A DNA stretch of 42,132 bases from Psammoneis japonica (taxonomy: Eukaryota). The notes under the pieces are model-generated. The model saw nothing but the letters and a program-made list of their open reading frames with translations. It did not search any database and was not told where the DNA came from. The translations under genes were made by a program, and so were the position numbers. Where the stretch lies: contig QPGO01000370.1 of NCBI GenBank assembly GCA_008632985.1, positions 1 to 42,132 of the forward strand, written 5' to 3'. This document shows, piece by piece, positions 6,301-42,132 of this stretch. Position 1 is the first letter of the stretch. The number at the start of each line of letters is the position of its first letter.

Positions 6301-6487
6301 CAGCTTTTTTCCAGGCAAGCTTCACTTGGACATTGACCATGGCACTCAACTATGGATCACCAAATGTGTCAACGCTCAAGTTCAAAGCAACATCAACAAC
6401 TCCCCAGTCAACTTCACCAACTGTCAATGTGAGATTGTCCTCAAACTTCCTGTGCACTGCCCCTGCCTTCCTGATGACTCCCCAGTT

Positions 6488-7427: not shown

Positions 7428-7812
7428 AGTTAACTGACAACCATGGAGTGAAACGCAAGGGTGAGGAAGGCAAAGACTGAGGCACAACTCCATGATCCCA
7501 GTCTAGAAAGTCAAAGAAGGGGAAGACTGTGGCAAGGCATTCCACCCCAACATCAAGAGCTTGCCCAAGATGGATGGCACCCAGTTTCTGTGGCAAATGC
7601 TGCCATCTCAAGGGCCGGTTGCACTGCTGCGTGCCCATTCAATCACAACAAACCAAAAGGAGCCCCACACGAAAGAGACAAAAATCTGGGTCGAGTCCTG
7701 CAGAAAAACTGACAAAATCCAGGAATGGGGCACATGGTTGTTGCTCAGCAGCAGTGACCCAAATCCAGGTGGACAGTCTCACCCACCTCCCAAACCTCCC
7801 CAATCCCACAAG

Positions 7813-8201
7813 GACGGGTTCCAGTCCCAGGTGGGACTCGTGTGACATTGGGCCCGTGGAATTCCACGTGCGAGCTCCACAGTGCTAGAATTTCATCAAT
7901 GGATGTGTTTGTCTTCAACATCAAACAAACGGCCAAGTTTGTGGTGCAATTAAGCCTCTTGCCACTCAACATTTTTGCAAATGCGCCTGCCCCACGTGAT
8001 TCTCGAGACATTGTAGAATCGCGCTGTAACAAAAAATGTCAAAAGTTGTTGGACGGATTGCTCAATGAGTGTGCCACAAAATGACACAAAATGTCGAAAA
8101 AATCACGTAGAAATCTACGTGCGCGACATGCGACGTGATTCAAAAAACCATCGATGTCACAGTTCAGCAGTGCGAGGTCCCACCTGGACCTGGAACATGT
8201 C
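7813..8201. mobile_element. Non-autonomous TIR DNA transposon (MITE-like), copy B, 389 bp, 4-bp TSD CAAG
   Basis: Left TIR GACGGGTTCCAGTCCCAGGTGGGAC and right TIR GTCCCACCTGGACCTGGAACATGTC (8177-8201) match at 21/25. CAAG at 7809-7812 and 8202-8205. Both subterminal regions are homologous to copy A. Confidence 0.9.
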
Positions 8202-15701: not shown

Positions 15702-15879
15702 CTTTGAAGTCTGCAAAAGCCGTTGAGTCGAATTCTCTCGTTTCTCTCTTACAACACAGAGAGATTGAGAATGACAGCTGAAGCTTGTCAACTGCAGTGA
15801 TCCAAGCACTCAATGCAGGTTTTGATTGTTTGCCTTCTGTTGTTGTGGGTCGGTTTCTCAACACTTTGGCATGCCGCCG

Positions 15880-21420: not shown

Positions 21421-21479
21421 TATCATGGGTTCGTAGTTCGTAGCTTCACAGAATAAAGTGCAAATGAGATAGAGAAACC

Positions 21480-22876
21480 ATGCTGTTTCGGTTCCGTAAG
21501 TTCCTGTGGATCGTGCTGTTGCTGACTGTTTTTTTCGTGTGGGTGCACCTGATGGGTGATCTTGATGGCTTGCATGAAGAGCAGCAGGACGGTCCGTCAC
21601 ACCAGCCGTCACATTACGCTATCACTGGCTCGTCCCCAGAACGCATTCCTTTGTCACTTGAATCAAACACAACTACTCAAAGTGGCGACAGCGACCAATG
21701 CCGAGCTGTGACGGAACTGTTTCCGCCGGCTCTCCCCTTGAGTCCAACGCAGACGACCGGGAACATGCCAGCTTTTGGGCAAGCCATGACGCACAATGTG
21801 ACACAAAATGCTGTGGCGTGGTTTCAGCTTGCCATGCCCAACACAGGCAGTGCTGGCATGGAGGATCGCATGTCTCGTGGGGGCAACATGACACCTTTTG
21901 TACGTTCGGGTGGGTGCAGACATGCACGCATCAAGCGCACAGGACCCACGCTCATCCCGGCGGTGAGCAGCAATGGTCTCGCCGCCACAATGGGGTTTTC
22001 GTCAGAGCAGCTGCACGACTGCGATTCTGAATTGTTTCGGCGACTTGGCAGCGTGGTGCGTTGTCCAAACAGTGGTGGCCACTCTGACTATTCCAAGACA
22101 GCACAGAATGTTCGTCACTGCTTCCCTGGGATGAAGGCAGGTTTTAACTTGGAAGCTACCGCCATTGGAACAACCACACGTCATCCAATCCAATACCACC
22201 ACAAGGAATTCAGAATCGGCCGTCCCAGTGTGAATTTTGACAGAGGGATTTGTCAATTGTGGGAGAATTTAACCTTGTCAGCTCCTGTCGGTCATGATAA
22301 AAACACAACATTTGGCTTTGCCTGTGAAAACAATGGGCCTTTTGGCAAATTGGGCGTCAGTAGTGACTTTGAGAGTTACGTTCGATTCGCCCACCACCGC
22401 TGGAACATTTTCACCCGCAATCTGGCTGGAACACTAGAACCTCAGCACGGTCCCATTACACGTTTTGAGGACTCACTTGCCATGCATAAAAAGGACTTTA
22501 CTCGCTCGCAGGCTATGGAACAGAACAAGCTCGGGGTCGATGCGCCAGACTACAAGACAGCCATTCAACACCTTGAAGCGATGCCTCATTTTGCCATATT
22601 TGAGCGCATGTCCGAGAGCATAGAACTGCTTTGCTTTACATACTGCTACAACTGCACGGCACTGGGTTTCACATACAAGCCGAGAACCCACAAACCCGTG
22701 CCGGACAATGTACCGTAGTCGAGGCGACGGGCAAATACCACAGGTTGAACATGCTCCTCTATCAACATGCCACCGATCTCTTTTCACGTCGAATAGCATG
22801 GATGCGGGAAGCAAAGGCCCAAGGGGTGCAGTGTGACATTTTAATCTCTGGATGTGGTTTGATCTGCAAAGACTGA
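21480..22876 (+). CDS. Type II membrane sulfotransferase-fold protein (Sulfotransfer_2 / heparan sulfate 6-O-sulfotransferase-like), divergent active site
   Basis: N-terminal RFRK + TM helix + stem. WFQLAMPNTGS resembles the 5'-PSB loop (PKTGx) and TTTRHPIQY resembles the 3'-PB motif (RDP). Also NIFTRNLAG, AIQHLEAMPHFAIFERMSESIELL and, after a 1-bp frameshift near 22712, RLNMLLYQHATDLFSRR, ending at TGA 22876. Confidence 0.75.
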
Positions 22877-24714
22877 AAAATCTTGGTTGGCATTAGTATC
22901 TTTCTTGGCTGTTGTCTGATTTGAGACCATTCTTGAACATCTCGTGTTTTGTCGCGTTGCGGTCCATTATTCGTAAGCTACGAATGTCTGGACCTTACCT
23001 CGGATCACTGACTCAAGAACGGTGTTACAAAAACTGCACAACAATGACACACACCGCGCTGTGTTTACCCAAACACGCGAATCAACAACAAATCAACAAC
23101 AAATGACAGTGACACGTCCTTCTCACACAAATTGTCGGATCTACAATGCAGGCCTAAAACGAAAACAGAACAGCGGTCTCACCGACGAGATGATTAGGTG
23201 CGGCACCATAACGGGATACCGGTAACACCATTATTTTTCCAACGAGCAACCTGGTAGTAATGTACGTTCATCTTAAAAGCGCTGAGCCTTACTATGTATT
23301 CTGTCCGTTTCCAGATTTGTCTTTAGACGACCGGTGTATTATCGGTTGCAGCAATATCTCGGTATTGACGCATTCTCAAGGCTCTGGTGAGAGTGTTGCG
23401 GCAGTACCTCTTCGTGTTTCACCCGTCACCACTTGATCCCTGGGGTTCCTCGCACCAAGAGAATGATTGTTGGCTACGTCACCATGATGCAAATGTTTTG
23501 TCTCTGCAGATTGGCACACCGTTCACAAGATATTTCAAACGTCACGTTCGATTGGACCCATCTTTGCCGGGCTTTCTTCGAGCGAGCGAAAACACTTGAA
23601 TTGATCAGAGGCGTGGACGACCGCTGAACCATACACTACTTGGTGAATAGCTCATGAGGTTTGTCTAATAAATTATTCTAAAACTAGGGATCAAGCAAGC
23701 TTGCAACCTAGCCATGATGGTATAGAGTGTCATCATCCTTGGCTCATCGCCTATGGGTGTGCAAAAACACCCCGATTACGTCCAAGTGATGCATGTAAAT
23801 CGAGCAAAATGTGTATCCACCACATGCAATGTCATGAACCTTACTCCCCTTCCGACGTATAATATCCAAACATGTATCGGTCCGACACTGGCAATCGAAT
23901 TGAAACTTTGTCTTGACAGATGTCATTCCAGTTCAGGACCAAAAAACATATATGCAGAATCCTGGTTCTTCCTCTAATCGTACATCGTACCACGGTTATT
24001 CGCAGATACGCCGTTCCTATCTGTTCCCCTGAGCGTCACTCTTGTGTATCCAATGCCGTAGAGAGGCGGAGGGTTTTGGACAAGAGTCAAAATACCACCT
24101 CTGGGGCCATGAGAACCATCATCAACCGTCGCCCAACAGTCGCACAGTGGGTAGAAACGGGTTTTTCTATTCACTTCCTTGCAATGCATGACTGGAGTTA
24201 TTGGACACACGCAAAAATACAGCACCTGGTTATGTGCCAATGGCCTCACAACGGTAGTTGAGGCTGTGAGAATAGCGAAGAGGCGAACTCTTTCATGGTC
24301 TTGGTATAAAAATGTTGAGAAAGCGGCAACAAGCTTTGACACAAAAGATCTTTCTGGTTCACTAGCCTTGTTGGTTGACAGCAGCAGTGATAAACAAAAA
24401 TATGATAATCAATCTACAACTGCTACAAAATGCTGTTTTGTGTTGTGTGTCTTGGATTTGATTATGCTGGTAACAAACACACATACTTTGAAGTGAAGCA
24501 CAACAAAGACGAGACCTATCCAACTTTTCCGGCCGACAATAGCACGACAAACATTTGGGTACAGCACTGTAACCTACAGCAGCGTGGTGCGGCAATACCT
24601 GGTTGACAGACAATTTGACACTACTAGAATTATTAATCCGCTACCAATACGCACAGATTTGACAAGATGCTGCGCTGGCGGAATCACACGTTTTTGAGGC
24701 CATCGATCCTCTTC

Positions 24715-25080
24715 TTAAGGATAGTAGTGTCCTTCCTCCTCCTCTTCCTCTTCTTCCTCCTCTTCCTCCTCTTCTTCTTCCTCCTCCTCTTCTTCCTCTT
24801 CTTCCTCCTCCTCTTCCTCCTCCTCTTCCTCCTCTTCCTCCTCCGAGGATGACTTGCTAGACTTGCTTGACTTGCTTGACTTGCTAGACTTGCTAGACTT
24901 GCTAGACTTACTTGACTTGCTTCCCATTCCTTTGCCATACAGCTCGCGAGCATTGTAGGTCGATGTTTTCTCCAACTTGCGGGCATGGATCTCGCGGCCG
25001 CGGACACGCGACTGAGCGGCAGCAACGTCCACCAACGCCATCGTGGCAACAGCAAGGAGGAACAACGGAAGAAGCTTCAT
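24715..25080 (-). CDS. Silaffin-like small secreted protein (121 aa): signal peptide, RXL sites, (SKS)8, E37
   Basis: MKLLPLFLLAVATMALVDVAAA signal peptide, then RVRG, RKL and REL motifs. Mature part is YGKGMG-(SKS)8-SS-E37-GHYYP. Synonymous variation (AGC/AGT, TCA/TCT, GAG/GAA) falls on third positions of this frame. Confidence 0.85.
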   Translation of the reverse strand: MKLLPLFLLAVATMALVDVAAAQSRVRGREIHARKLEKTSTYNARELYGKGMGSKSSKSSKSSKSSKSSKSSKSSKSSSEEEEEEEEEEEEEEEEEEEEEEEEEEEEEEEEEEEEEGHYYP

Positions 25081-25640
25081 GGTTGAGGGGGGAGAAAACA
25101 CTGAAAACCACGCTGCAATCTGTTTTGTGAGAGTTGTGAGTTGTGAGACGATGGCGGGTACGAAGTGGGCAAAGTTTTTGTTTTTTCACAAAAAATGTTG
25201 ATAAATTTTGAAACATTTATATGACCTTCAGAAGAGTATGATTCGCAAAAATTTTAAAATCAATGATATAATTAAGCGCTAAATACCCAATAATAAAATT
25301 TCAACTATCAAACCACATACCGTATCAAAAATTTTTATCATATACTCAAATATGAACGTGTAGATACTAATCAAATATGGAAAATGCATTTATTAACAAT
25401 TGTTAACGACTAAGAATCTTAGATGCTGTATGTCGGAAGTCATAACTCACATAAGAACGTCAAATTTTAAAAATTGAGAAACAAAAAAATGAGTCGTACT
25501 ACTGACACTGCGAAAGTAAAAATTTGTAAAGCGCTGCCAGTCGTGGGAAAGCAATTTCTTTCTCGCAACAACCGCTTCCATCGTGCCGCTTCTCACTTTT
25601 TCTTGTTAAAAAGAATCACACCCCAACCCTGTTTCCAACC
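25081..25640. promoter_or_regulatory. AT-rich 560-bp intergenic region between divergent genes; candidate bidirectional promoter
   Basis: Head-to-head ATGs at 25080 (-) and 25641 (+). By eye, the most AT-rich stretch of the window. No specific motif identified. Confidence 0.5.
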
Positions 25641-26708
25641 ATGCGTGTTTCTACCTGTGTTTTCTTTGGTGTTGCCAGTCTGCTCGATTGGCAGAATGGA
25701 GCCTTGGCGATTGCCAATCCTTCGGGAGAAGAAGCGGTCGAAAAGGTGGAGGACCCGGAGCAAAAGTTTGTGTTGAAGCCGGATGCGAGCCTTTTAGACT
25801 ATCTGGACCCCTCCCTGTTTGAAGATCCATCGGTTTTGAAAGAAGTCAAGGAAACCCTTCGTAGAGGAAGCCTCGTTGTTCTCAAGGATGCGTTTATTCC
25901 AGAGTTTGCTGAATATGCGTGGTCCTCTTTTAGTCGAGATGATCTCGAATGGGAGCCGTTTGTGTCTATCAAACCTAATGGCCACAACTTTCTAAAGCAC
26001 AGACCGGTCTCGAAAGATAAAGAGGAGGTGTTTAAACAAGTTTCAGATGTCTTCAAGCACAAGGACTCGAGGAAGTTCATGTCTTCTCTTTCAGGCAGAA
26101 ATTGCCATTCCAGCAACATTTCTACTTTGTTGAGCTGGTATAAGCCGGGAGATCACAGTAATCCACACAGTGATAGACTGGGAAAAAGAACTGTGACGTT
26201 TCTTTGGCAGCTATCCAAAGATTGGGATCCAGCTTGGGGTGGTGCCTTTTATTGGAACAATGCATTCTTTCAAAACGCTTACCAGCACGCCTCGTTTAAC
26301 ACGCTCCTCCTGTTCCCCATAACGGCCACGTCAACTCATGCGGTCACCCCAGTCTTGCCTGCTTCGGAAGGTTACAAACGGCTAACCTTTTGTGGTTGGT
26401 ACAATGCCAAAATAACTCGAGACGAATGGGATACTGTGCATGATCCTTTGGAACTCATGTATGCCACCCCTGAGGATCGATCCGACTTGACATATGAAGA
26501 GGCAAAGCGAATTGTGGCGATGGATCTTTCCGAGGTCAAGGACGAGGCTCGCCAACAGAAACTTGATGCTCTTAAGGACGACATTCTGGATGAAGCTATT
26601 CATCCCTTATATGAAGATGCTATTTATGTGTTGGGTTTTCCTGAGGAGAACCACGACCTTGAGAAAAAGGAAGGGCTGTCGGAGGGACAACAACAGAGAA
26701 CCTCTTGA
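25641..26708 (+). CDS. 2-oxoglutarate/Fe(II)-dependent dioxygenase (prolyl-hydroxylase-like fold) with probable signal peptide
   Basis: Intact 355-aa ORF. SWYKPGDHSNPHSD (HxD), LSKDWDPAWGG, FNTLLLF, STHAVTPV (distal His), KRLTFCGWY (2OG-binding Arg). N-terminus MRVSTCVFFGVASLL...ALA. Confidence 0.92.
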   Translation: MRVSTCVFFGVASLLDWQNGALAIANPSGEEAVEKVEDPEQKFVLKPDASLLDYLDPSLFEDPSVLKEVKETLRRGSLVVLKDAFIPEFAEYAWSSFSRDDLEWEPFVSIKPNGHNFLKHRPVSKDKEEVFKQVSDVFKHKDSRKFMSSLSGRNCHSSNISTLLSWYKPGDHSNPHSDRLGKRTVTFLWQLSKDWDPAWGGAFYWNNAFFQNAYQHASFNTLLLFPITATSTHAVTPVLPASEGYKRLTFCGWYNAKITRDEWDTVHDPLELMYATPEDRSDLTYEEAKRIVAMDLSEVKDEARQQKLDALKDDILDEAIHPLYEDAIYVLGFPEENHDLEKKEGLSEGQQQRTS

Positions 26709-27755
26709 AACGTTTCATTGAGTCTTTAACTTTTCACGTACGAGTGTAACTCTATAGCGCCAGACCTACATACTTTCTTTGTTCTTCTGGATGTCCTGCG
26801 AGGACGATTAAACTCACTTAATGTGTTACCGTGCATGGGAATGAATCAGGGTGAATGGCAAAACTGCAATGCACAACTTGAAATCGGGACCAAGAGTGGT
26901 GAATTTCTGTTGCATTGATGGCAACTTTGCCAGGCCAAGGCAATCAGCAACAGAAAGATTGAGGTTTAGATGATGCAAAGGGCCCTTTAGGATTGAAATC
27001 CTTTGGACAGGAGTGCTCATGTTTCTCCCGCATCTTCTCCATTCTCCCGCATCTTTGGCATTGAAATGCTGTGGACAGGAATGCTCATGTTTCGGCATAT
27101 GTCCGGTCACGCAGGTAGCTCCGAGTTTATGAAAAAAAAGAGAGGAAAAGGAGGAGGGGAGGAGAAAACGCCATGCGTTCAATTCGCACGTACGATGGAC
27201 AGACGTTTTGCGACATTCATGCTGCTGCGACAAAAACAAACCAACCATGATGCGGCAATGACCGATGTTTGATCTTGCCACCAAACCTTTTCCTGCCAAA
27301 AATGTCAATGCATGACATCCACATTTTGCTGTGACAAGTGTGTCAATTGCAAGAGACACAAGAGAAAACCCCCAAAAATGAAGAACAAAAGCTCCTTCCT
27401 GCGGCTGTGCCGCTGCCCAGACTGCACATTTTCACAACTTGCACAGCAACAGCCAATGTTCTGTTTTTGCTGCCAAACCTTTCCTGCCAAAATTGCTGAT
27501 GATCAGCATGCTGTGCTGTTTCTCTTTGGCAAGTGCACCAGCGAAAAGAGAGGCACAACAGGAAAAAGCCCAAGAAAGCAAAGCAAACGCAAAGGCCCTT
27601 TGCGTGGTTTTGCCACAAGACTCAGGCTCTCAGCTCTCACAGCTTGTGCACTTCAATTTAAGTTTGCACTTGACAGATTGAAGGCTGACTTTCAGCAATC
27701 AGGTGTCAGGTTCTGCTGTCACACTGTGCCTGTGAGCAGCAGCGCCAAGGTTGCT

Positions 27756-28031
27756 TGACAGAAATTGAAGGCAAATGGCAAGAATTCAAACAACAACTCC
27801 TTGCTGCTGTCTAAATGGCAGATGAGTCTCCGCTCAGAGACCGTCACAGGAGCCAAAAGACGTGTGAGTCGGCACAATCGGGCTGCTGTTGTTGTTCTTG
27901 TGAGCCTTGTGGCTCGAAAGCAAACTGCATCGCGCGCGAACGCGCGGAACTAAAGCACACAAAACTGTGCACGGCAAACCAAACAGCGCGCAACATTTCA
28001 CGCGCATCTAAATCCTGTTCAAATCCTGTCA
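27756..28031 (-). repeat. 3' LTR (276 bp) of the non-autonomous Copia element
   Basis: TG...CA ends, 6-bp terminal inverted repeat, adjacent PPT. Homologous to 31027-31305 and 39863-40138. Confidence 0.93.
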
Positions 28032-28704
28032 CTCCCCAGTTTGCTTGAGGAGTCACAGAAACAGATTTTGACTTCGGATTTACCAAAGAACTTTGGAGTC
28101 AAAGCACCAAAACATGAGGAGACAAGAAAGGATCAAGATCCGAGAGCAACGTTGCATTCTCCAAGTGGGTCATCTTGAGATGAGCTGCGTCTCCCCAATT
28201 GCAGATGCCGTTGTGCTTTTCAAAGCTCAAGGCACACTTGGGATCTTGTGGGATTCCACATCCGCACTTGCAATGGAAGGAGCAAAGCTTGGTCTGGTTG
28301 ACAATGTTGAACGGCGGGGTGACATTGCAGGGGCAATGCAAACAAGTTGACATTGCCTTCACTTCCTGAGCGAAGGTCATAAAGACTGATGGCCGTCTGT
28401 TGGTTCTTGGGATGGTTGCCACACTGGGCTGCTGCTAGAAAAACAGAGCAGTGCTCGTGCAGGGTGGCATGGCGTTTGCACGACTCGGGGAACAGAGCAA
28501 GCATGAGTTCAAAGGCACAAGCGGTGGTCTTGTGTTCCACCAATCCAATTGCAAGCTCAGCTGCATCTCCTGAGAGACTGATCCAATTGGAGAAACGAGT
28601 CTCAAGGTGCAAGCCTTCAGGGATCGGATTGGAGCAAGACATCTTGTGGTGCAAGGCTGCAGATGTCTGATTGGGGCAACCAGTCCCGTGCTGCAAGACT
28701 CATG

Positions 28705-29260
28705 GGATCCAAAAGGACTTGCCAGTCTTGTGACACGAGTCTTCGGGGATCCAATCAGGAGGCCAAGTCTTGAGGTGCGAGACTTGGGGGATCCAATCAG
28801 GAGGCCAAGTCTCGTGGCACAAGACTTGAGGGATCCAATCTGGAGGCCGAGTCTTGAGGCATGAGTTGTGGAGGATCCAATTGGGAGGCCCGGTCTTGAG
28901 GCACGAGACGTGGAGAGTCCAGTTGGGAGGCCTGGTCTCAAGGCACGAGACTTGGGGCATCCGATCAGGAGGCCCAGTCTCGATGTACGACACTTGGGGC
29001 ATCCAATCAGGAGGCCCAGTCTCGAGGCACGAGACTTGAGGCATCCAATCAGGAGGCCTGGTCTTGAGGTGTGAGACTTGGGACATCCAATCAGGAGACC
29101 TGGTCTCAAGGCACGAGACTTGGGGCATCCAATCAGGAGGCCCAGTCTCGAGGCACGAGACTTGAGGCATCCAATCAGGAGGCCTGGTCTCGAGGTGCGA
29201 GACTTGGAGCATCCAGTCAGGAGGCCTGGTCTCATGGTGCGATGCTTGGAGGATCCGAAG
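28705..29260. repeat. 42-bp tandem repeat (~13 units), each with an internal hairpin, inside the LTR element
   Basis: Unit ~CATCCAATCAGGAGGCCCAGTCTCGAGGCACGAGACTTGGGG, period 42 (GATCC at 28748, 28790, 28832). The minus frame reads (TRPPDWMPQVSCLE)n. Confidence 0.92.
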
Positions 29261-29667
29261 ACAACGAAGCTGCTTGGATGTCCTGAACTCCCGATCTGAT
29301 GAACCGGTTGAACTGTTGTGAACAGATTCAATGACGGGAAAAGGAGGCTCCCCATCAGGAGATGCGAGAAGCAAGTTGTCATCTCCATCACTTCCCAAAC
29401 GAAGACTGTGAAGGGTGACAGCGGTCAACACGTGGAGGTTGGCAGCACGTGGTTTGCGGGGTGCAAAGACTGCAGCTTTGGGAGCCATGGGTGGAGTGTC
29501 CCAACTGGTCTTTGAAGTGCGGGCCTGTGCAAGGGCTGCAATCCTGCACTGGGCCGAGGTTGCTTGCAGGCGGGTTGGTCAAGACATGCGGGGCGCGACT
29601 GACACCACTTCTGGGGGACACCTGAGTGGCGGCACAGTGCAAGGCTGGCGTCAAAATGGCACTGGGT

Positions 29668-30072
29668 TCACCTGGTTTGGATGGCAAGGGACTCGGCACA
29701 GGTGCCCAAGGGTGCTGCGCCAGTGGCTAGAGAGGTCAAGCAGTCCGGACCAAGGTGGCAGTTGCGAAATTCGTCGGGTGTGAGCAACTGGGGTTCATTG
29801 GTCACATCATCACCGTTGCAAACTTTGACAAAGTAGAAGCTGATCAAAGCTGCCAGGAGGTTTCTGTGGGTCCGTGGCAAAGGCACTGCATTGGCGCCAT
29901 CTCTGCAAGTGAGGGCGTCAATTTGGGTGGGCAAGAACGTGAACAATTCCTCACACGATTCAATCCCATTGATGGACAGGGCAGAACGAAGAGGGCTGTC
30001 ATCGTCTTGATTGAGCACAGTGCCCAGAATGCATTTGAAGCTTTCAGTTTGTTGCTGTCGCGTGAGAACCAT
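29668..30072 (-). pseudogene. Gag-like N-terminal region of the non-autonomous Copia element
   Basis: First ORF after the 5' LTR and leader: MVLTRQQQ...ILGTVLNQDDDSPLRSALSINGI...IDALTCRD...PLP. It resembles diatom Copia gag starts as I recall them. Expected Tyr positions appear as Cys/His. Confidence 0.6.
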
Positions 30073-31026: not shown

Positions 31027-31305
31027 TGACAGAAATTGAAGGCAAATGGCAAGAATTCAAACAATGGCTCCTTGCTGCTGTCTAAATGGCAGATGAGTCT
31101 CCGCTCAGAGACCGTCACAGGAGCCGAAAGACGTGTAAGTCGGTATAATCGGGCTGCTGTTATTGTTATTCTTGTGAGCCTTGTGGCTCGAAAGCAAACT
31201 ACATCGCGCGCGAACGCGCGGAACTAAAGCACACAAAACTGTGCGCGGTAAACTAAACAGCGCGCGACATTTCGCGCGCATCTAAATCCAGTTCAAATCC
31301 TGTCA
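31027..31305 (-). repeat. 5' LTR (279 bp) of the non-autonomous Copia element
   Basis: TGACAG...CTGTCA followed by TSD TTGCT. Least mutated of the three LTR copies. Confidence 0.93.
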
Positions 31306-33499
31306 TTGCTTGGCAATCCAGCAGCCAGCTCTCTGTGAAAAATGGTTGCAAAAGGAAAGGATCTGCCTGCTGCAACACAAGAGACAAGCAATCAAGAGTG
31401 CATTTTCCTGTGGTTTGGTGTCAAAGGAAATGTGCTTGTTTGTGGTGCTGTGCTGGCAAGGCCAGCTGCGATGCACAGCCCAGCCAGCCAGCCACCGCCA
31501 GCACAGTGGGTGCTGGCCTCCTCTCATGATGTTGGCATTGGGCCACATCATGCAGCTGTGCCACTGCAGTCAAATGGCATTTCTGCCAGCTCTGCATGAA
31601 AAAACAAATTGCAAAAGGAAAGGAGCCATCTGCGGCACAAGAGACAAGCAGCCGCCAAGCTTCCCATGGTGGCGGGCTGCTTGAAGTGCTGCAGCAGCTG
31701 TGCTCTGTGCTGGCCATCCAACAGAGATGAGTGGACCACAACATTGGCTGCAAGATGAAAGGACTGTGTTGGTCACAACTGGCACCAAACAAGTGCAGGA
31801 AATTTTCCTTTCATCCGAGGAAATTTGGGGGCTGCTGAGAGAGGAGCCCCCCATGACCCAAAACCCCACTCATGCTCACATTTTGATTTCCCCCTCATTG
31901 GCTTGTTAAATGAAGAAAACAAAGAGGCTTTCCTCTTTTGTTTTGTTGCACAATGTGTGCCAGATTTGCCACACCAATTTGAGCTTTTGTGGGCTTGCTT
32001 GGAGCAGATTGCACTTGAAGAGACCACGGAAGCACATCTTTTTGTCCTTGAGAAAGTGCCTCCCAATGGTGTCTGCCTCACTCATTGAGTGCATTGCACA
32101 AAAAGAGGTGTTTTGGCAGCCACAGGCTCTGTGCAAATCAACTTCTAGATGAATGGTTCATGACGGTTGCAACCACGCATTGAATCACCAATTGTTTTTT
32201 CCTTTTCTTGTTTTCTTGCACTTCCTTGTCTAGGAAATTCAGCGCCAAATAAGGAATTCCCTGTGATCGAAAACCTGTGATGATGCGGTGATTGGCACGT
32301 TGACAATGATTCCGTCCGTGGCGTCGCCATCAAATTTGCACTGGAAAACCATGCAGGTTTCTGCTTGTCGCCATCAAAATGGAATTGTGTCGTTGTCAAA
32401 TTCCACACAAACCCTGGTGCATTTCCTGCACAGTTTGTAAAGAGCCACCTGCGCAGCTGGACGATTGCCCACATTTCTCCCGCATCTTCCTCGTTCTCCC
32501 GCATCTTCAGCATTGAAATGCTGTGGACAGGAATGCTCACATTTCTCCAGCATCGCAGTGCCCCGCACCGCACATCAGGGCAGCAGCAGTGCGGTGCAGA
32601 CAAAAACTGCTGTCCGTCGTCCGTCGTGTCGCAGAACACGCGTGAGGCGTTCCAGAGTTTGTTGTTGTTTCAACAACAGCAACAGAGTGACCTTGTCGGC
32701 CGAGGTTTTGGTGATTGCTGTCAGCAAGCAAGTGGTGAGCACATGAACATCTGTCCTTTGATGGACAGACTCAAGCTGATCAACGGCCCTTTTGTCATTT
32801 TCCCCACTCTGCAGCGGGGCGCAAAGATGCAGCGAGGCACGCAAGGAGAGATGTGTGTGGGCGAGAAGTTGGGGTGAGACCAGCAGCAAGCTTTGGATCA
32901 ATGAGCCATTGTTGTTGCAGCCTGCAGCTGCTGCAATGGCAAAGGCTTCACCAGAGCCAAGGACAGCACAGCAGCTCTCTTTGTCCTGCCACCCAGCAGC
33001 CCAAATGCACAATGCTTGCAAGCATTTCCACGTGGGAGGCTTGCCACAAGTCCTTGATGCCAGCTCCCATTGTGAAGTCAGCAGAGCATTTTGCCGCATT
33101 CTTTGGCAACAGCCTCTCCACTGAGGCTTGTTGTGCAGAGACGTTGAACTCCAAGGATTTTTGGCGGCTCTTGTTCCGAGCACCCCAGGGAATGCAAAGC
33201 TCCTTCGCCAGCTCCATGTCAACCTCAAAGCTCCCCTCAATCCTGAGAAGAAAGATGAAGATTGGGTCTTGAGTGGTCATGGCACTCATGTGATGGCAGC
33301 CAACCCACCCAGCTCACATCTCTCCAGTGCATCAATGACTCACCAGCAGCCGTGCTGGGCTGGGGTGACTCCGAGTTGCTCGTCAGCATTTCTGGCAGAC
33401 ATTGAGTTGCTGACCACTTTTCTCAATGCCAGCAAGCCCTGCACCACTTGCTGCACATCACCATTGTCCCATGTTTTTTGGCAGGAGTGGCCATTGCCA

Positions 33500-35600
33500 G
33501 CTGTTGTCACCTTGTGATCTGCGCTCTTCAAAATTGTGATGCTGCTGCTTTGGACTTGCCAGCTTGTTGGTGGCCTCAGGCAAGATGCAGTTTTCTGTGT
33601 TGGATGCCCTTGTTCAATCCAGGGTTGTGAGTTGGGCATCCTCAGCCAGCGCCATTGCTTGGGTGGCTCATGCCACTCAGCAACCCCATTGCCAGTGACC
33701 TGGTGGCAGCTGCCAGCCCTGGCAGCACCACCATGAGATCACATTGGGTGCAGCAATGGTGCCTGACACCACTTTTCATCATTTTCACCAGGAACTCACC
33801 CTCTTCAAAAATTTGGTTGAGGAACATGGTGGGGCAGTCCTGGCTTGGGTGTTTGTGGCATGATGCTGAATGCCTCTGAACCCTGCCTTCTGGGATGGTT
33901 GACACCAATGGCAACCTTGTCATCATGTGCACCACATGGCCAGTGGCCACCTGCAAGGAAATGCTCAAACAGTTCTCAAGTGCAGTGCCAAAATGTCTCT
34001 GATTGACCACATGCTCAACAATGTGCACAGGTGTGGCATCAGCTTCCCATTGTCCACCTGCCAGATTCAGTGCTTTGGAAAGTTGCAATTGACTGCTGCA
34101 CACTCCTTGGAGGCTTGCAGCATCTTTGCCTGTTTTCCCAAGAAGATGTCAGCCTCCAACCCTCAAGACATCATGTCCTTCCACATGAAGACCAAGGACG
34201 CAAAGCACTCTTCTCTTGTGAGCTGTGACGAACTTGGCATTTGTTGCATTCTCAAGTGCATCAACAAGATGCACTGTTGGCCACAGTCTGAGCTCCAGGC
34301 CTGTTTGTTGTGCAGCAAGAGAAGGAAGACCATGGGCAGTGTCTCACCACAATGAACACTGTGAAGGAACTGCACATGGAGTGTGGTGTGGCTCCTCCCT
34401 TGCACTTGTGTCATCCAAAGACACTGGTGCATTGCAACAAAACCATCATGATGCACAATGGGGGTCAAGGTTCTTTGGCACTTGCCAAAAACATTGGCTG
34501 GCAAGGTGCCCATGATGGCATCAAGCATGGTTGCAAGTTTGGCCCTGTGCCCAAGAAGACATCCACCAGTGTGGTGTTGTGCCAGAAGCCTGCCAACTGC
34601 TGTGACATTGTGGGCTTCACTGTCAGTCAACAGTCAATCAAATGGAGTCCAATGCTCCAGCAACAATGACAGACACATGACACAGCTGACCTGGCATTCT
34701 CCAAGCCACTTGGACGCCAAAGTCCAAATCTGCTCCCCATCAGCCCAATCCTGTTTTCATCAATGCAACAATTGACAACTCAACTGCCACCGGAATTGTG
34801 TGGGTGAGATGGCACCTTTAACTCCCTTGATGGGCTGCACCTTTTTGCTGATGCTGCCCACCCAGATTGCAACAACAAGTTTGGGAACACATTCCATTTC
34901 AAGATCATGCCCAATGTGCCCATTGTTCAGTCACGGATGTTGAGTGTAACTGTGTCTTTCACACCAACAAGAAGAGCAGCCAAAACAGAAAGGTGTGTTC
35001 CCTCTCTGCTGTCCAGCCTGTCCCTGAGACTGGCAAGCTGAAGCAGCATGGCATCAAATCTCACATGAGAAAGGTTTGCAATGATCTGTTCAAAAACTAA
35101 AAGATGACTTGGCATCATCACAAAACATTCTAAATCATGCCATTGTGTTGCTTCCACATGGCTGGCTCTTGCTCTCCAGGCATCTGGTCCTTCATGAGGC
35201 TCATCTCCGGGACCTCAGTGAAAGTGCAACAAAGCAATGCCAAGGTCATGTGTGCATTTGGCAAGGCCTTGCTCACTCTGCAGGCATCATTGTCACAATC
35301 TGGTTGCAACTTTGCCATGTTCATGATGTGACTGCCAGGATTTGGAAGGAGTTTGGAAAAGGCATCATTTTGACTCAACATGGACCAAAACAATTGGTGT
35401 GAATTGTTTTGCCTCAAAGCCATGGCCAAAACTAATTCCCACATTTTTGACAATTCCAAACAGCTTTGGCCCATTGCTTGTCTTTTCTGCAGCAGCTTTT
35501 GTGGATTCATCACTGCTTGTGTCAATGCAAGTCATTGTTGCGCCATCTCGACTGCATTTGGGAACTTCTTGCTAAAAATCATTTGCAGCAGTTTGACCTT
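33500..35600 (-). mobile_element. Decayed non-LTR retrotransposon (LINE) reverse-transcriptase region
   Basis: Minus-strand remnants in the expected order: KLLPNPGS (~35340), KDQMPG (~35185), CDDAKSS..(D)RII resembling NDAKSCYDRI (~35085-35125), DSEAHNVTAVG resembling EA(H/R)KTLGV (~34600). Heavily disrupted, boundaries approximate. Confidence 0.5.
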
Positions 35601-35736
35601 GAGTCTCGTCACATGATCCCAACCACATGTGAATGTCCAGGTGTTGCTCCAAAATGGCCTTGCAAATGCCATGATGACAATGTGGTTGACATGGACATGG
35701 TGACAGAACCAACAAGAACAAAGCTCAGTTCAAGTG

Positions 35737-35737
<1 letters not shown>

Positions 35738-35803
<66 letters not shown>
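35738..35803 (+). repeat. (CAA)22 microsatellite
   Basis: 66-bp perfect CAA run flanked in register by TGA/CAA units. Confidence 0.95.
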
Positions 35804-35805
<2 letters not shown>

Positions 35806-37049
35806 ACAATGACAAAAAGTTCATGACTGCATTGCACTTCTTTGGGCATCACAGATCACAGATCCCACCTGCCGGCAAAATGACTTTCGCCAGCTTGGCA
35901 TGGCGGGAATTGGTGGGGGCACTTTCTCCACCTGCAAAGTGGCCCTTCAGTGGCTGAGCAGGGCTTCACTCATGCACGCAGAGTTGCAGGGTGTGTTTGC
36001 TGTTTGCAAAGCTGGGCAAGGCTGGCAAGATCTGGGTTGGTGGTGCCACCCTGTGCCACCACACTCACATGGAGAAGCATCACAGTGCAAGCTCTCCTGT
36101 GAATGGGGAGAAATTGGGCTCACAAAAGGGAGCCACGGTGCTGGCAAATTCTTTTTCATTGTGTCATCTCTTGTTTTGTGCCAGAGCACCCATCTCTCTT
36201 GGTGTGCACTGGTGTTGCTGGCACAAAACAAGAAATGCTGCTGCTGTGGCACTCCTGCTTTGATGCTCTGCACCAAATGCTGCAATGTCTTTGCAGCTCA
36301 TCACACAGCACAAGCCAAGCTTGTTGACAACAGTCTCCTTTGTCTCACTTCAAACAATCAATGGCAGCTGAACAAAAGGAGACATTCAAGACATGCTGGA
36401 GACAGACAAAGTGATGAGAGGTTGCAGAGTGCAGAAAAGGCAACATGACTTGGCATGGAGGTCAGCTGGGGTTTGGTTTGATCTCACAGCCACACGTTGT
36501 GTTCCCAAGCTCATGAACATGAATGAAAGCTCAACAGGCACACTTGCTGATGCAAAAAGCAGTGGGAAAGGTCGTCCTGCTCTTGAGAGCACAGATTTTG
36601 GGTTGTCATCTGCTGGGCCAGTTACCCAGTGTTGAAATGAGTCTGTGGAGGCATGAGGAAAGAAGGACTTGGGACAGGACAATTGGGAGAGGATGAGTTG
36701 CATGCCATCCAGAACTTTGCAAAGGGTCTTTTCTCAGTGCAGCATTGAGGGAAAGCTGTGGAGCAGATCTGATTTGAAAAAAGCACTTTTTAACAACTTC
36801 CACACCACATCTTTGCTCAGACTGGCACCCACAGCAGAGCAGCTGGAAAGCAAACTGTCAAGCCAGCACTGCAGGGTTGGCACAGCTGTGGCTGGCTGCA
36901 TGTTGTCTGGGATGTTTTTGTGAGTCACAGAGGTGACCATTTGCAGCTTCCATTCCGTGCACGCATGGTGTGCGGTGCGGTGCGTGCATGCGTGGAATCA
37001 TCCAAGAAGGTCTTTCCACTGTCAGTCTTCATTTTTCTTGTTCGACACC

Positions 37050-37800
37050 ACACCTTGCACCTGCCTTGAGATGTTTGTGAGATCGCAGACAATGAGCTGA
37101 TTGTCAAGACACACCCACAGAGCACCGCCCATTGCCCTCTCTCACATTCTAATGTCACCCCCACCACTGTGGATCACATGCCACATTGCAAATCCTTCTT
37201 GGCACAAGAACTGTGGAGCAAGAAACTGCTTGGACTAGAGGATTGGCCACATCAAAATGGGTCACACATCCAGACATCAAAGTGGGAACAATGTGGCTTC
37301 TTTCTTCATGGCACAATGAGGCTCCTCCTCTGGCAATCCACTCAGAATGTGGCAAGGTCAAAACTGCCTTCTTGGCTCAAGAAAATTTGAGCAAGAACTT
37401 CTTTGCCAGAGGATGATTCCTTGTCATCAAGTGGGCATGCATGCAACAGGCTCATTGTGAATGCTTGGATGGAAGGAACACAGGCCTGTCCCAGGTCTCA
37501 GGTCTGATCATGCACTTGCAGGACATTGCCTGGGACATGTGGAGGAGTCAGAAGCAAGTGGATGACTTGGAGAAGTCTGAAACTCTGCTGCAACAACAGC
37601 ATCTTAGATGGGCAGGCAGGGGAAGAATGCAGATCCTTCTGCAACAACCCCATCTCTCACCACCATCTGTCTTGATGGTTTGTCAGGCCAACAGAGAACA
37701 TCTTGGCAGAAGATCAGGACCACAAATGACATTGACTGGAAGCAGTGTCAGTCGCAAGACTGGCTGTTGCTTTGCTTGACACTGATTGAGGATCTACAAG
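37050..37800 (+). mobile_element. Decayed LINE ORF2 C-terminal fragment
   Basis: AFLAQENL...FFARG...KWACMQQAHCECLDGRNTG...LIMHLQDIAWDMWRSQ resembles the Q-x-IGW...W..QQ.YY...W.MW..RN tail of non-LTR ORF2 proteins. Confidence 0.5.
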
Positions 37801-39862
37801 GATTGTCAGTTGTGCAGTGTTTCCACCCCACAACTTCAAATGTGGACTTGGGCTTGTTTTGTTGTGCACATGTGCTCTGACCCTGTCTGCAGTTGTGGAC
37901 TGAAAGGCATGCCAGGCATTGCCAAAAGCTTGTTGCAGGCAGCAGCCAGCAATGGCTGTGCAATTTTTGGGATTGAATTAAATTGAATTGAACTGTGTGA
38001 GGAAATGGCTTCTGGTGTGGCATCACCACCTGTCTGTCTGTTTGGGCCAGCAGGAAGCACTCCAAGTTGAGGTTTCACTTTTTGTGTTTTGCCATTTTTG
38101 AAAACCATTGGCCACCTTTCATTGTCATCATCATTGCACTTGTTTTGTGAATCAGCTGCAGGACTTGTTCAATGGTTCAATGGCTGTTGCCCACAGTGTG
38201 TTTCCACCATGCAGGCAACACCCCAATGGCAGTTGTTGCAGCTTTTCCCCAGGTCCAGTTTGGTTCATTTGAAGGCAGTCTAGCTCATGCTCATGACAGT
38301 GTGGCTGCACCCAATTGGTCTGACCCCAACTTGTCACTGCAAAACAAGTTTCCAGAGTGCATCTTCTCTTGTGTGTGTCTCCTGCAGGGCCAATGACAAA
38401 GCAAGTGCCCATTGCACCCTCCACACAGCCAAGAGTTCATGGCAACAGTGTCCAAATGGCCACCAAGATGGGCTTCAGTGAGACTTGACAAGAGCTTGTG
38501 GACTTGACCCACACAAAGAGAGCAACCTAAATTGGTTGCTCAGAGTCTGAGGTGGCAACAAAATTTTGAGTGCTGGAGGAGTTTCTTTTGCCCCCCAAAA
38601 CCACAACTGTCAGCCCACCCAATGCACTCCTCACATTGTGGATGCATGGCAGTCAGTCTGAAGTTGTGCCCCCAAGACCCCCCTTTTTGTAGCATCTTGG
38701 CTGATGCATCTGCCAAGCACACTGTGGAGGTGCGCCAGACTGTTGACAACATTTGGTCTTTGTTTGTGGCATTGTCTCAGCAGCATTGGTCAGCATCCCT
38801 GGTCATCTGCTCAAGGATCTGCAGACTCCATGAGCAAATGCAAGATGGACCCTGCACCCATGGTGCATGGAGAGTGGATTGCCTCATCAATCATTTGTTG
38901 CTGCTGCACAGTTGGCTGGCACATCTGCTGCCAAGTGCTCCAGGCAGGAGGCACAAGGATGAGACTCTCATTGGCAGCACCCATCATTTTGTGGTTTGTG
39001 GCACTGACTCAGCAGCATTGGCCTGCATCCTGCCCTGCCATCAGCTCAAGGATCTGCAGACATGAGCAAAGGCAAGACAGACCATGTGCACATGCGTGGA
39101 AAGCAGATTGCTGTCAGCCACATTTTTGCAATGATTGCCAAATGACTCTTCATTTGACATCTGTTGTCCATTTGTTTGCCAGCCACAATGGAGTGGAGAG
39201 CTGCAAATGGCAAGTGGAGAGAGTGTTGCCATCTTCCAACAACACAGCCAGTGCAGCCCTGCTGCATGGCCCCAACAACCCAGGTGGAAGCCTTGGCTCT
39301 GAGGAAACTGAGAGAATGGGTGCCAAACAAGCTCAGCTGGAATCCCACAGATGAGAATTTTAAATTCAAAATGGATGACATTTGGACCCACAAGAAAGGA
39401 GCTCAACACATCACTCATCAGGCAAGACAAAAAATTTGACAAACCCATGGAGCCAAATGAACCACTTTTCCCTGGTGTGCTGCCCACCTCCTCATCTTAG
39501 AAGTTTTCAACATTTTGCCAATGGACATGTTTCCCACCACAAAATTTGGCATGTGTGAGCTCTGCCCTGCTGCCACTGAGAGTGCATTCATGCCACAATG
39601 TCATGAGCCAAGGAAGCAGCTCTTTGGCATGTCTTGACTCTTGTGTGCGGAGCTTGTTCAGCATGCCGTGGGGACACAGCACTGTGATCAAATGGAGAAA
39701 GATCTTCAATCTTGTTGCTGGGATGTGTGAAAAGCAGAAATGATGGGACCTTTTTTTTTGCACCCTCCTTCTTAGAAGAACACAAACATGACACAGCTCA
39801 TTGGCTGGCTGGAGAAGTTGACTGTGTTTTTGAAGCCCTGGAGGCCAAAGTCTCTCACAATG

Positions 39863-40138
39863 TGACAGAAATTGAAGGCAAATGGCAAGAATTCAAACAA
39901 TGACTCCTTGCTGCTGTCTAAACAGCAGATGAGTCTCCGCTCAGAGACCGTTGCAGGAGCCGAAAGACGTGTGAGTCGGCACAATCGGGCTGCTGTCATT
40001 GTTCTTGTGAGCCTTGTGGCTCGAAAGCAAACTGCATCGCGCGCGAACGCGCGGAACTAAAGCACACAAAACTGTGTGCGGTGAACTAAACAGCGCGTGA
40101 CATTTCGCGCGCACCCAAATCCTGTTCAAATCCTGTCA
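39863..40138 (-). repeat. 3' LTR (276 bp) of the pol-bearing Copia element
   Basis: TGACAG...CTGTCA, collinear with the other two LTRs. Confidence 0.93.
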
Positions 40139-40189
40139 CTCCCCATTTTGCTTGAGGAGTCACAGAAACAGATTCGACTTCGGATGGAA

Positions 40190-42132
40190 TGAAGTTCCAG
40201 AACATGAGGGGGTGGAGAAGGTCCCAGACTTGGGGAGTGACCCCAATGCTTGCTGAGAACATCAGCAGGGTTGCGGGAGCCTTCGATGAAGTGGAGCTCA
40301 AGGCAACCAGAGGCAATTGCCTCACACACACAGTGGAACGACAGTGCGGTGTGTTGCTTGTGTAACTTGGAGTGCGGGATGGTGGCACTGTCTGCAACCG
40401 ACTTGTTGTCACTGAACATGCAACCAATGTCACGGATCGGGACGCCGAGGTGGCGCAGGGTGATGCGCAGGTCAATGATCTGCTCGACACAAGTCCTTGC
40501 GGGCAACAAATTCAGATCCGCAGGTTGCAGTCTCCACGGTGGCTTGCTTCTTAGAGAACCAATCAGCCGGGAATTCATTGAGGAAGTGGAGCATTCCCAT
40601 GACAGGGCGTCCGGTGAGCATGCAATGGCACAAGTTTGCATCGACGCAGTGGGTGGTGGTGACAAACTTGCCAAGGGGCAGTGGAGCGTCCTTTGGGATC
40701 ATCTCTTCTGCTTCGCCGTGCACAGAATGCATCCATTCATGGGCCGGAGCAGGGAGATCTGAACAGTCAGGCTTTTCTGTGCAAACGCGGAGAGCGCTGT
40801 GTCGCATCTTGGAGAGGCACCCACAGACGCGTTTGGCACGATCCAAGTGGCCTTGGCGGGGCGCAGCTTGGAAGCTAGAGAGTGACATGACGGCCGTGGC
40901 AATGTCAATTCGACCAAGGGACACTGCCCATTGGAGTGAACCAACAAGAGACTGGAACTGTTGAATGCCATCGGGCCCCAGCAGTTCGGAAGTGTCCAGT
41001 TCGGGGTGGTCACCCTTCTCCAGAGGTGACAGGGTGTTGGTGGTGGGTTTCTCCCCAAACAGTCATGTGCAGCTGTCGACCATGCGTTCGATGCACTTGC
41101 GCGGAGACAGGCACGAGGTGCCGTCAGGATCCCGGGAAAAGTCACAGCCCAGATGGAACTCAATCGGTCCCGCACCCTTGAGCTTGAACTTGCACTTTTC
41201 CGTGAGAGTGTCGACGAAAGATTGAGGGTCCTTCATGGCAATGGCGAGGTCATCCACATGGACGGCAACATGTTCGTGGTGGTCGCCGTTCCTGCACATC
41301 CAAATGTTGGGTTCGGCGTGGCAGGGGAAGAAACCTTCAGCTCGCAGGCAGTCAGCAAAGCGCTCATGCCAGCGGAGGCCGGAGCTGCGCAGTCCATGCA
41401 GGGCCTTGTGGATGACAAGAATGCGGCCTTCGAGTTTGCCAAATTCGGGTCCAGCTGCAATGTACAGCTTCTCCTTGGTGGTGGCTTCAAGGTGGGCATT
41501 GCCAATGTCGGTGGCCCATGTCTCCAACTCGTTGAGTTCGGCCAGGAAAATCATCAGCCGAAGGCCACGGAGGGAGACTGCTCCGGAGCAGACACTGTCG
41601 ACGGGCATGTCCGTGAGGTGCCCATCGGCTGCGAGTCGTGCCTTGTGGCAACCGTCGTGTTTCACGTCATGCACTGGGTGCACTCGGATCTTCTTGTGTC
41701 CCGCAGGAGGAGTGGAAGACTCGGAGGGCCCGCGGTCATGAAAGACTTTGCACTCATCGAGTTGGTCCATCTCGAGATTAGTCGCGTCTCCCCATTTGCG
41801 GTTGCCATTGCATTCGTCTAGTGACATGGCGTGTTTGCAGTTCCGGGGAACTTCGTGTCCGTACTTGCAGTGAGGTGCAGTGTGGAAGGAGCGAAGCTTG
41901 GCTTGGTTGGCCATGCGGAGTGGCTTCTTCTGGCGCCTCGCGATGGTGCGGAACCGCTTCCAGCCATCAGTGTCGAGAAGTCCGTTCTCTCGTGCATAGA
42001 TGGCGCAGGTGACAGGGTCGTCCTTGGCGATGATGGCAAGAGGCTCGGACGTGATCTCCCCACTTTCCCATTCAAGCATGATGTTGTAGCTTGAGCCTTT
42101 CCAGGTTGGGTCATGAGGCTTCAGAGGTCCTT
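40190..42132 (-). pseudogene. Copia pol pseudogene (reverse transcriptase RVT_2 + RNase H), frameshifted and hypermutated
   Basis: HKARLAADGH, DIGNAHLEA (canonical DIGNAYL), KALHGLRSSG (KALYGL), AVHVDDL (YVDD), CVDAN (YVDA), ETATCGSEFVA (TYGSEF), DNKSV, NPADVLSK. Frame breaks near 41060-40930 and 40490. Confidence 0.95.

Follow-up and report, generated by a model that had tools for sequence, protein, structure and literature searches.

Repeat-induced point mutation (RIP) of ascomycete fungi leaves dense, context-specific transitions in repeats, a strong dinucleotide signature and clean neighbouring genes. It is triggered by duplication, takes place at a premeiotic stage, depends on an enzyme of the RID/DNMT4 type and consists of C:G to T:A changes, mainly at CpA, that create TpA and stop codons and lower the GC content. 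Relatives of DNMT4 are reported in many diatoms (passages of PMC9998398). Methylation-driven CpG decay acts on a palindromic pyrimidine-purine step, which becomes CA or TG on either strand, and is confined to silent DNA. Hypermutation of retroelements by APOBEC or ADAR enzymes takes place at the RNA or cDNA stage, is strand-asymmetric and fixes transitions in integrated copies. In dinoflagellates, 5-hydroxymethyluracil lies preferentially at TA and TC, with an enrichment in repeats and an overlap with 5-methylcytosine (passages of PMC11572971). Here we describe a 42,132-nucleotide stretch of Psammoneis japonica DNA (NCBI GenBank assembly GCA_008632985.1, contig QPGO01000370.1, positions 1 to 42,132; hereafter the window), which ends in part of a Ty1/Copia retrotransposon that has lost nearly all of its conserved tyrosines. 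We read this as a context-specific hypermutation of silent repeats, RIP-like in outline but without the defining chemistry of RIP: the change is T:A to C:G at TpA, and it destroys TpA together with the stop codons TAA and TAG and raises GC. Probably, the dead, high-copy Copia element was rewritten by a DNA-level, strand-symmetric process converting TpA to CpA or TpG, which acts on silent or repeat-derived non-genic DNA and spares genes.

The C-terminal ~650 codons of Ty1/Copia pol, covering the reverse transcriptase and RNase H, lie on the minus strand from 42130 to 40182. They are matched by the full-length relative P0004 (1859 aa) in three tblastn frames (42130-40496, 40500-40237 and 40232-40182) and align to its residues 1200-1848, the part upstream of the reverse transcriptase falling outside the window. 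The fragment is 64-71% identical to full-length polyproteins of 1850-1990 aa, and its first frame contains the Pfam domain RVT_2 (E = 1.4e-21, 77.6 bits against a cut-off of 31.6). A long terminal repeat (LTR) of 284 bp with TGACAG...CTGTCA ends follows directly downstream, at 39863-40146. The initial annotation had the region begin at 40190, which is about right, as pol ends near 40182; the element itself extends beyond the window end at 42132. The features of the pol fragment are as follows:

40182..42132, minus strand: 3' part of Ty1/Copia pol, dead, cut off by the right-hand window edge (three tblastn frames, with P0004 and P0121 as queries)
41117..41707, minus strand: reverse transcriptase domain RVT_2 (Pfam; residues 142-338 of a 355-aa frame)
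41258..41260, minus strand: His codon CAT in place of the Tyr of the catalytic YVDD box (Tyr in 144/152 relatives)
41063..41065, minus strand: sole in-frame stop, TGA (Arg is the commonest residue there among relatives, 55/152; fits CGA>TGA by CpG decay)
40499..40504, minus strand: first frameshift (at 40501 a base is lacking in most other copies)
40232..40236, minus strand: second frameshift, near the pol end (tblastn frames; one base omitted at 40232 in 14295/27415 depth)

The pol frame contains no TAA or TAG, the lone stop being TGA. With its HVDD box, 20/23 conserved Tyr replaced, one stop and two frameshifts, this Copia copy is a dead member of its family.

The loss of tyrosine was measured against 270 relatives from two protein searches, many of them 1850-1990 aa long and probably intact. 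Of these, 152 span the fragment end to end, and the other 118 were dropped before counting; 107 of the 152, at 58-70% identity to the fragment, form a close set. Sites with at least 80% agreement among the 107 close relatives were taken as conserved, giving 399 sites, at 339 of which the fragment keeps the majority residue. Conserved Tyr is kept at just 3/23 sites, the remainder having become 9 Cys (TGY), 9 His (CAY), 1 Trp and 1 Phe, while conserved residues other than Tyr are kept at 336/376 (Fisher exact p = 2.0e-15). Conserved Arg is kept at 22/29 sites and was lost as 5 Cys and 2 Gln. The overall composition is shifted in the same direction, with 0.6% Tyr in the fragment against 3.9-6.3% in close relatives, 6.2% His against 3.8%, and 4.3% Cys against 1.2%.

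The initial annotation had pointed to five Copia motifs in which the conserved Tyr is replaced, and each of them is borne out by the relatives. YVDD reads HVDD, with the codon CAT at 41260-41258 (Tyr in 144/152 relatives, His in 5/152); NAYL reads NAHL (CAC at 41494; Tyr in 144/152); ALYGL reads ALHGL (CAT at 41398; Tyr in 152/152); TYGSE reads TCGSE (TGC at 40522; Tyr in 125/152); and YVDA reads CVDA (TGC at 40648; Tyr in 111/152, Phe in 38/152). Relatives carrying His or Cys would have spoken against a secondary change, as would a loss of Tyr no greater than that of other residues; instead, Tyr stands at these positions in 111-152 of the 152, and its retention is far below that of the other conserved residues. 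The codons at all five motifs are CAY or TGY, and the changes are exactly the TAY to CAY and TAY to TGY steps that had been claimed. Their polarity is fixed by protein conservation, TA being the ancestral state. The further claim that the process inactivates elements by missense change while erasing TAA and TAG stands in part: Tyr is recoded by missense and TAA and TAG are gone, but the inactivation does not follow, as the death of the element could have come first. The description of the process as the opposite of RIP is apt, given that the polarity is reversed and TpA is destroyed.

We then took the 60 changed conserved residues and sought, for each, a single base change that restores the majority residue. 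A single TA>CA or TA>TG step accounts for 25/60, comprising 18 Tyr and 7 non-Tyr residues (three cases of Val>Ala with GCA, Leu>Pro with CCA, Ile>Met with ATG, one Ser>Gly and one Ile>Val). The rest are 11 CG>TG or CG>CA steps, 5 other transitions, 8 transversions and 11 residues that need at least 2 changes. At the DNA level, we followed the dinucleotides on which 60% or more of 78 intact related loci agree. Conserved TA survives at 4/28 sites (lost to 12 TG, 10 CA and 2 TT) and conserved CG at 13/19. For the other 14 dinucleotides retention is 0.66-1.00, with AC and AT, which overlap Tyr codons, at the low end. Every conserved TA site in this comparison is a Tyr codon, and no DNA relative closer than 70% identity was found; ancestral TTA, CTA, ATA and GTA codons are therefore judged through their non-synonymous products only. 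CpG decay also left its marks, with CG observed/expected ratios (obs/exp) of 0.02-0.6 in blocks of the window and with Arg>Cys five times and Arg>Gln twice. CpG decay is thus a second process beside the loss of TA and not its explanation. GC-biased gene conversion was considered and ruled out, as it has no dinucleotide specificity and would not lower CG.

RNA viruses classically show a joint shortage of TA and CG with an excess of CA and TG. This pattern would suit an active lineage selected to avoid UpA and CpG in its RNA, for which the recoding is adaptive. Such an account is scarcely credible here: 20/23 conserved Tyr are gone, including that of YVDD and a Tyr invariant in 152/152 relatives, the copy is broken by a stop and two frameshifts, pol shows hardly any loss of CpG, and the choice between His and Cys differs between lineages.

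The shortage of TA is not confined to the element. Across the window, obs/exp is 0.24 for TA, 0.50 for CG and 1.58 for CA/TG, and these averages conceal a mosaic. In the depleted blocks (3640-11136, 16443-20361, 27191-29728 and 31283-42132) TA obs/exp is 0.00-0.12, CG 0.02-0.83 and CA/TG 1.4-2.1; in the gene blocks (1-3639, 11137-16442 and 21401-27190) TA is mostly 0.5-0.75, CG 0.65-1.05 and CA/TG ~1.1-1.4. In counts, 77 TA occur in 24.8 kb of depleted blocks, as against 516 in 14.7 kb of gene blocks. In the depleted blocks four 1-kb bins hold zero TA, and one TA-free gap measures 2381 bp. The blocks are:

3640..11136: TA-depleted block D1, 27 TA in 7497 bp, transposon domain not recognised
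16443..20361: TA-depleted block D2, 4 TA and 29 CG in 3919 bp
27191..29728: TA-depleted block D3, 9 TA in 2538 bp
31283..39862: TA-depleted block D4, the DNA in which the Copia element sits, 25 TA and 85 CG in 8580 bp, including the 2381-bp TA-free stretch
1..3639, minus strand: contrast block, subtilase gene, TA obs/exp 0.46-0.58
11137..16442, minus strand: contrast block, FAST/RAP repeat-protein gene, TA obs/exp 0.24-0.75
21401..27190, plus strand: contrast block, genes including a 2OG-Fe(II) oxygenase, TA obs/exp 0.5-0.67

In block D1 the stop triplets number 25 TAA, 15 TAG and 374 TGA; this scarcity of TAA and TAG means that long, meaningless open frames abound in depleted blocks. The depletion continues past the LTR end at 39863. 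A search of 137 frames of at least 86 aa from the other TA-free blocks (~22 kb) against Pfam, with E up to 0.05, yielded no transposon domain, none of the frames reaching a curated cut-off. Self-comparison of the window by blastn yielded few repeats besides the LTR copies and tandem arrays, and tblastn of the window with all 270 Copia proteins added just gag and pol relics at 28135-30072. The process is therefore wider than recognisable transposons, since it takes in ~22 kb of blocks without a transposon domain.

A uniform, genome-wide bias of TpA towards CpA and TpG, with purifying selection alone keeping TA in genes and the blocks merely unconstrained, would account for the observations that depleted blocks are all non-genic, that normal blocks all hold genes or long open frames, and that most depleted blocks gave no transposon domains. 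We think it unlikely, because host genes hold ordinary levels of TA where the protein is indifferent. The subtilase frame (725 codons) has 15 synonymous-type TA at codon positions 2-3 and 35 at positions 3-1, across codon boundaries, against 1 and 3 in the 553 codons of the dead pol. A process 5-17 times faster than CpG decay would wear away synonymous TA whatever the selection on the protein, and host genes retaining TA at such sites means that the sparing goes beyond protein-level protection. On the upstream side of the subtilase frame, normal TA furthermore extends for ~0.5 kb and stops abruptly at 3639, after which 1584 bp contain no TA. The edge at the FAST/RAP gene is less sharp and lies near the frame start. 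Genes may escape the proposed TpA process either because it is aimed at repeats or because transcribed DNA is repaired.

The loss of TA is strand-symmetric. Three blocks have a CA:TG ratio of 1.03-1.07, pol has 0.92 and D1 has 1.29, and the coding-strand outcomes at Tyr codons are near equal, with T>C (His) 9 against A>G (Cys) 9 in the window and 55 against 62 over all mutated sequences. The blocks also differ by degree: TA obs/exp is 0.19-0.26 with CG at ~0.9 in the gag/LTR block (29729-31282), 0.10 with CG at 0.73-0.83 in pol, and 0.00-0.07 with CG at 0.02-0.16 in old blocks. From this gradation it follows that TA falls before CG. By our own arithmetic (survival of TA 0.14, of CG 0.68 to ~0.89), the per-site loss of TA is roughly 5-17 times that of CpG. 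TAs that survive are rich in YTAR (46/77 in depleted blocks, 102/516 in gene blocks) and poor in ATAN (10/77 and 250/516, respectively). This skew hints that RTA/TAY is hit faster and is kept as a lead; the pooled Cys:His ratio of 62:55 leans weakly in the direction that it predicts.

Copies of the LTR elsewhere in the window allow a comparison within the family:

39863..40146: 3' LTR of the element, TGACAG...CTGTCA ends, three TAs in CTAA context, 20 CpGs kept
27756..28031: second LTR copy (93% identity), with a related internal flank after it
31027..31305: third LTR copy, retaining the most TA and CG of the three
28135..30072, minus strand: internally deleted Copia relics between two LTR copies (gag N-terminus at 30072-29743, pol piece at 28311-28135, 42-bp tandem array between them)

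The three LTR copies differ at 19 substitution sites, 16 of which belong to the class of TA or CG versus CA or TG. Four of the 16 are three-state sites (CA/TA/TG or CA/CG/TG), with the middle state one step from both others. The LTRs keep their TAs, all in CTAAA-like context, as well as dense CGCG runs, while the adjacent pol has been stripped of ~90% of its TA. Two accounts suggest themselves: resistance of such contexts to the process, or selection on the LTR during the spread of the family. The gag/5'-LTR end of the deleted Copia (29729-31282; 25 TA in 1554 bp, CG near normal) is less TA-depleted than its 3' part (9 TA in 2538 bp), reflecting either two joined elements of different age or a process uneven along one element. 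The tandem array between its pol and gag relics, at 28596-29309, consists of ~17 copies of the 42-bp unit that are 64-81% alike.

Further copies of the family were drawn from sequencing run X1, whose contigs were aligned to 39800-42132 at no less than 80% likeness; X1 is possibly the source sample and does not count as independent support. A total of 5452 X1 contigs aligned, 1154 of them at least 99% alike to the stretch. Depths add up to ~34,000-110,000 across pol and to as much as 769,000 across the LTR; eight X1 contigs given singly have depths of 27-66. The Copia family is therefore very high-copy, and few sequences in the run are more abundant. At 40501 the extra base is missing from 39998/45966 depth (87%), making the frameshift there private to the window copy or a minority state. 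Other letters reach at least 10% at 112 places, and 110 of these are transitions. Among the 40 best-supported places, 25 have CA or TG here and CG elsewhere, 4 show the reverse, TA-type differences comprise 3 single and 2 double (CA versus TG) cases, and six are of other kinds. The remaining 72 are balanced (15 A>G, 18 T>C, 18 C>T, 20 G>A and 1 C>A); these counts would also fit many CA-versus-TG polymorphisms, or minority copies that keep TA. Only one of 24 ex-Tyr codons falls among the 40 best-supported places, and other copies read a different derived codon there, so that at most ex-Tyr sites the bulk of the family is not clearly different from the window copy. Many TA losses thus seem to be shared by most of the family, which suggests that the mutated form was not kept from high copy number.

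Editing at the RNA or cDNA stage of retrotransposition, by an ADAR- or APOBEC-like host deaminase preferring A after U or T, would have copies arrive hypermutated. The near-exclusive transitions among family copies accord with it, as does a very high copy number combined with TA losses that seem shared. It is nevertheless quite unlikely. Such editing should leave strand-asymmetric clusters of a single transition, and here T>C and A>G are near equal on the coding strand in both the window and the pooled set, with CA:TG near 1 (0.92-1.07 in most blocks). The ~22 kb without retroelement signature, beyond the LTR end, are equally depleted, and neighbouring elements have reached different stages of TA loss.

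The signature recurs in other assemblies. We took 80 related loci from public metagenome contigs, of which 78 have a TA obs/exp of 0.47-1.01, the median of all 80 being 0.71. Locus L066 has a TA obs/exp of 0.02 and, at 35 Tyr sites of P0004, carries 1 Tyr, 12 His, 8 Cys and 10 Phe. Locus L064 shows the signature in part, with a TA obs/exp of 0.31 and 14 Tyr, 9 Cys and 6 His. The many Tyr>Phe changes (TTY) of L066, which affect 10/35 Tyr sites over L066:5-2614, form a separate observation; in the normal relatives compared, Phe takes ~9-22%. Where the window and L066 can be compared for the choice between His and Cys, they agree at 4 and differ at 9 of 13 shared sites, and the YVDD site is CAT in the window and TGT in L066 within the same C|TAT|G context. 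These differing choices rule out an outcome fixed by context, which we had considered as an explanation of shared states, and show that the events in the window and in L066 are independent. The signature also marks seven database protein fragments that derive from ENA and JGI metagenome contigs, while four control fragments keep 62-84% of Tyr. In one of the seven, P0157, Tyr is kept at 0/17 sites, with 11 Cys and 4 His. P0236, P0391 and P0393, which belong to one 90% protein cluster and come from JGI and ENA contigs, have an identical pattern of 5 Cys, 3 His and 2 Tyr of 12; this identity indicates that one mutated lineage recurs in separate metagenome assemblies.

The same data bear on a sequencing or assembly artefact, whereby C or G would be called in place of a modified base at the TpA steps of silent DNA. 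A modified thymine concentrated in repeats does exist in another algal group, according to passages of PMC11572971. We consider misreading very improbable, as the pattern is present in the 1154 X1 contigs (albeit from what is possibly the source sample) and in L066, L064 and the seven protein fragments from separate ENA and JGI metagenome assemblies. Sites that were once TA, moreover, read CA or TG and never CG, and copies differ stably in state.

The spectrum of the changes, their polarity and regional restriction, their rough speed relative to CpG decay and their recurrence in other assemblies can thus be stated directly. The mechanism we propose for them would be a T:A to C:G transition at either T of the palindromic TpA step, giving CpA or TpG. 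It would act in place on chromosomal DNA that is silent, non-genic and largely transposon-derived, and would run alongside CpG decay at a several-fold higher rate. Since Tyr is encoded by TAY alone, Tyr>His/Cys would be the clearest trace that it leaves in the coding sequence of a dead element, and dead frames would stay open because TAA and TAG are removed. The likely cause is a base-modifying or deaminating activity tied to silent chromatin; candidates include adenine deamination at TpA and a mutagenic oxidised thymine. The dinoflagellate 5-hydroxymethyluracil offers a lead only: a modified thymine at TA corresponds to the base that changes here, but the host is diatom-like, TC is not depleted, and the passages of PMC11572971 report no mutational consequence.

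Several points weigh against this picture. The enzyme or base modification behind the TpA change, like the mutation events themselves, is deduced from the sequences. 'Repeat-targeted' holds only for the Copia pieces, since the other TA-free blocks gave no transposon domain. The base before the Tyr codon is no clear predictor of the outcome (8 Cys and 5 His after a pyrimidine, 4 and 4 after a purine). At four LTR sites TA occurs only in the copy at 31027-31305 while the other two share the same CA or TG, which could reflect shared ancestry of those two copies or a gain of TA. With CG elsewhere and CA or TG here at 25/40 of the best-supported X1 places, the private changes of the window copy are mostly CpG decay. 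Much of the TA loss may accordingly be older than the expansion of the dominant subfamily, and this is hard to square with a plain course of insertion followed by decay.

A bolder reading is possible, and we advance it tentatively: diatom-like algae may have a DNA hypermutation system, directed by chromatin or repeats and of a chemistry undescribed for genome defence, that converts A or T at the TpA steps of silent DNA. One candidate enzyme would be an adenine deaminase acting on double-strand DNA, another a thymine oxidase with a mispairing product. Such a system would recode Tyr, wreck TATA-like and AATAAA-like signals and erase TAA and TAG, as a mirror image of fungal RIP. A defence role for the TpA process is not supported, as the mutated family is still very high-copy.

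Set against the described systems, the locus thus shares with RIP the dense transitions in repeats, the clean neighbouring genes and the dinucleotide signature, but not C:G to T:A change with TpA enrichment: TA obs/exp is 0.00-0.12 in the depleted blocks and the changes are TAY to CAY or TGY. RIP responds to duplication; a trigger of that kind would be conjectural here, where the Copia family is highly repeated and still very high-copy. It shares with CpG decay a palindromic step resolved into CA or TG on either strand of silent DNA, but the target is TpA, cytosine deamination is not involved, and the loss is ~5-17 times faster in the same element. It shares with APOBEC and ADAR hypermutation the fixation of transitions in integrated copies, but both strands are hit equally and DNA that bears no retroelement signature is also affected. 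Full-text literature searches, with subscription journals mostly outside their scope, found no published TpA to CpA/TpG hypermutation of transposons.

If real and targeted, the process would be a second, chemically different eukaryotic way of mutating silent DNA to death, and the first such system known to act on A:T pairs. It would change how transposons are detected and dated in such genomes: their proteins would lose Tyr and gain His and Cys; dead frames would stay open and be called as genes; and LTR-divergence clocks would be dominated by two dinucleotides. A context-specific A>G or T>C activity on DNA would also be of interest to base editing. In genomes and metagenomes the signature to search for is TA near zero, CA/TG near twice expected and CG falling later.

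The neighbouring genes in the normal-TA blocks have features of their own. The 2OG-Fe(II) oxygenase gene at 25530-26708 is of the prolyl-hydroxylase type (Pfam 2OG-FeII_Oxy_3/4); it has no TET/JBP family match, and nothing links it to the mutation process. The FAST/RAP protein (Pfam FAST_1, DUF1601 and RAP) has matches in mixed algal phyla with scores of at most 0.90 in an Atlas search, and its gene contains 111-nt (37-aa) tandem repeats at 13737-15024, in 9-11 copies of 60-100% identity. The subtilase homologues that carry names are diatom proteins of ~42% identity, and three 108-nt tandem repeats, 77-100% alike, lie within the long subtilase frame at 917-1240.

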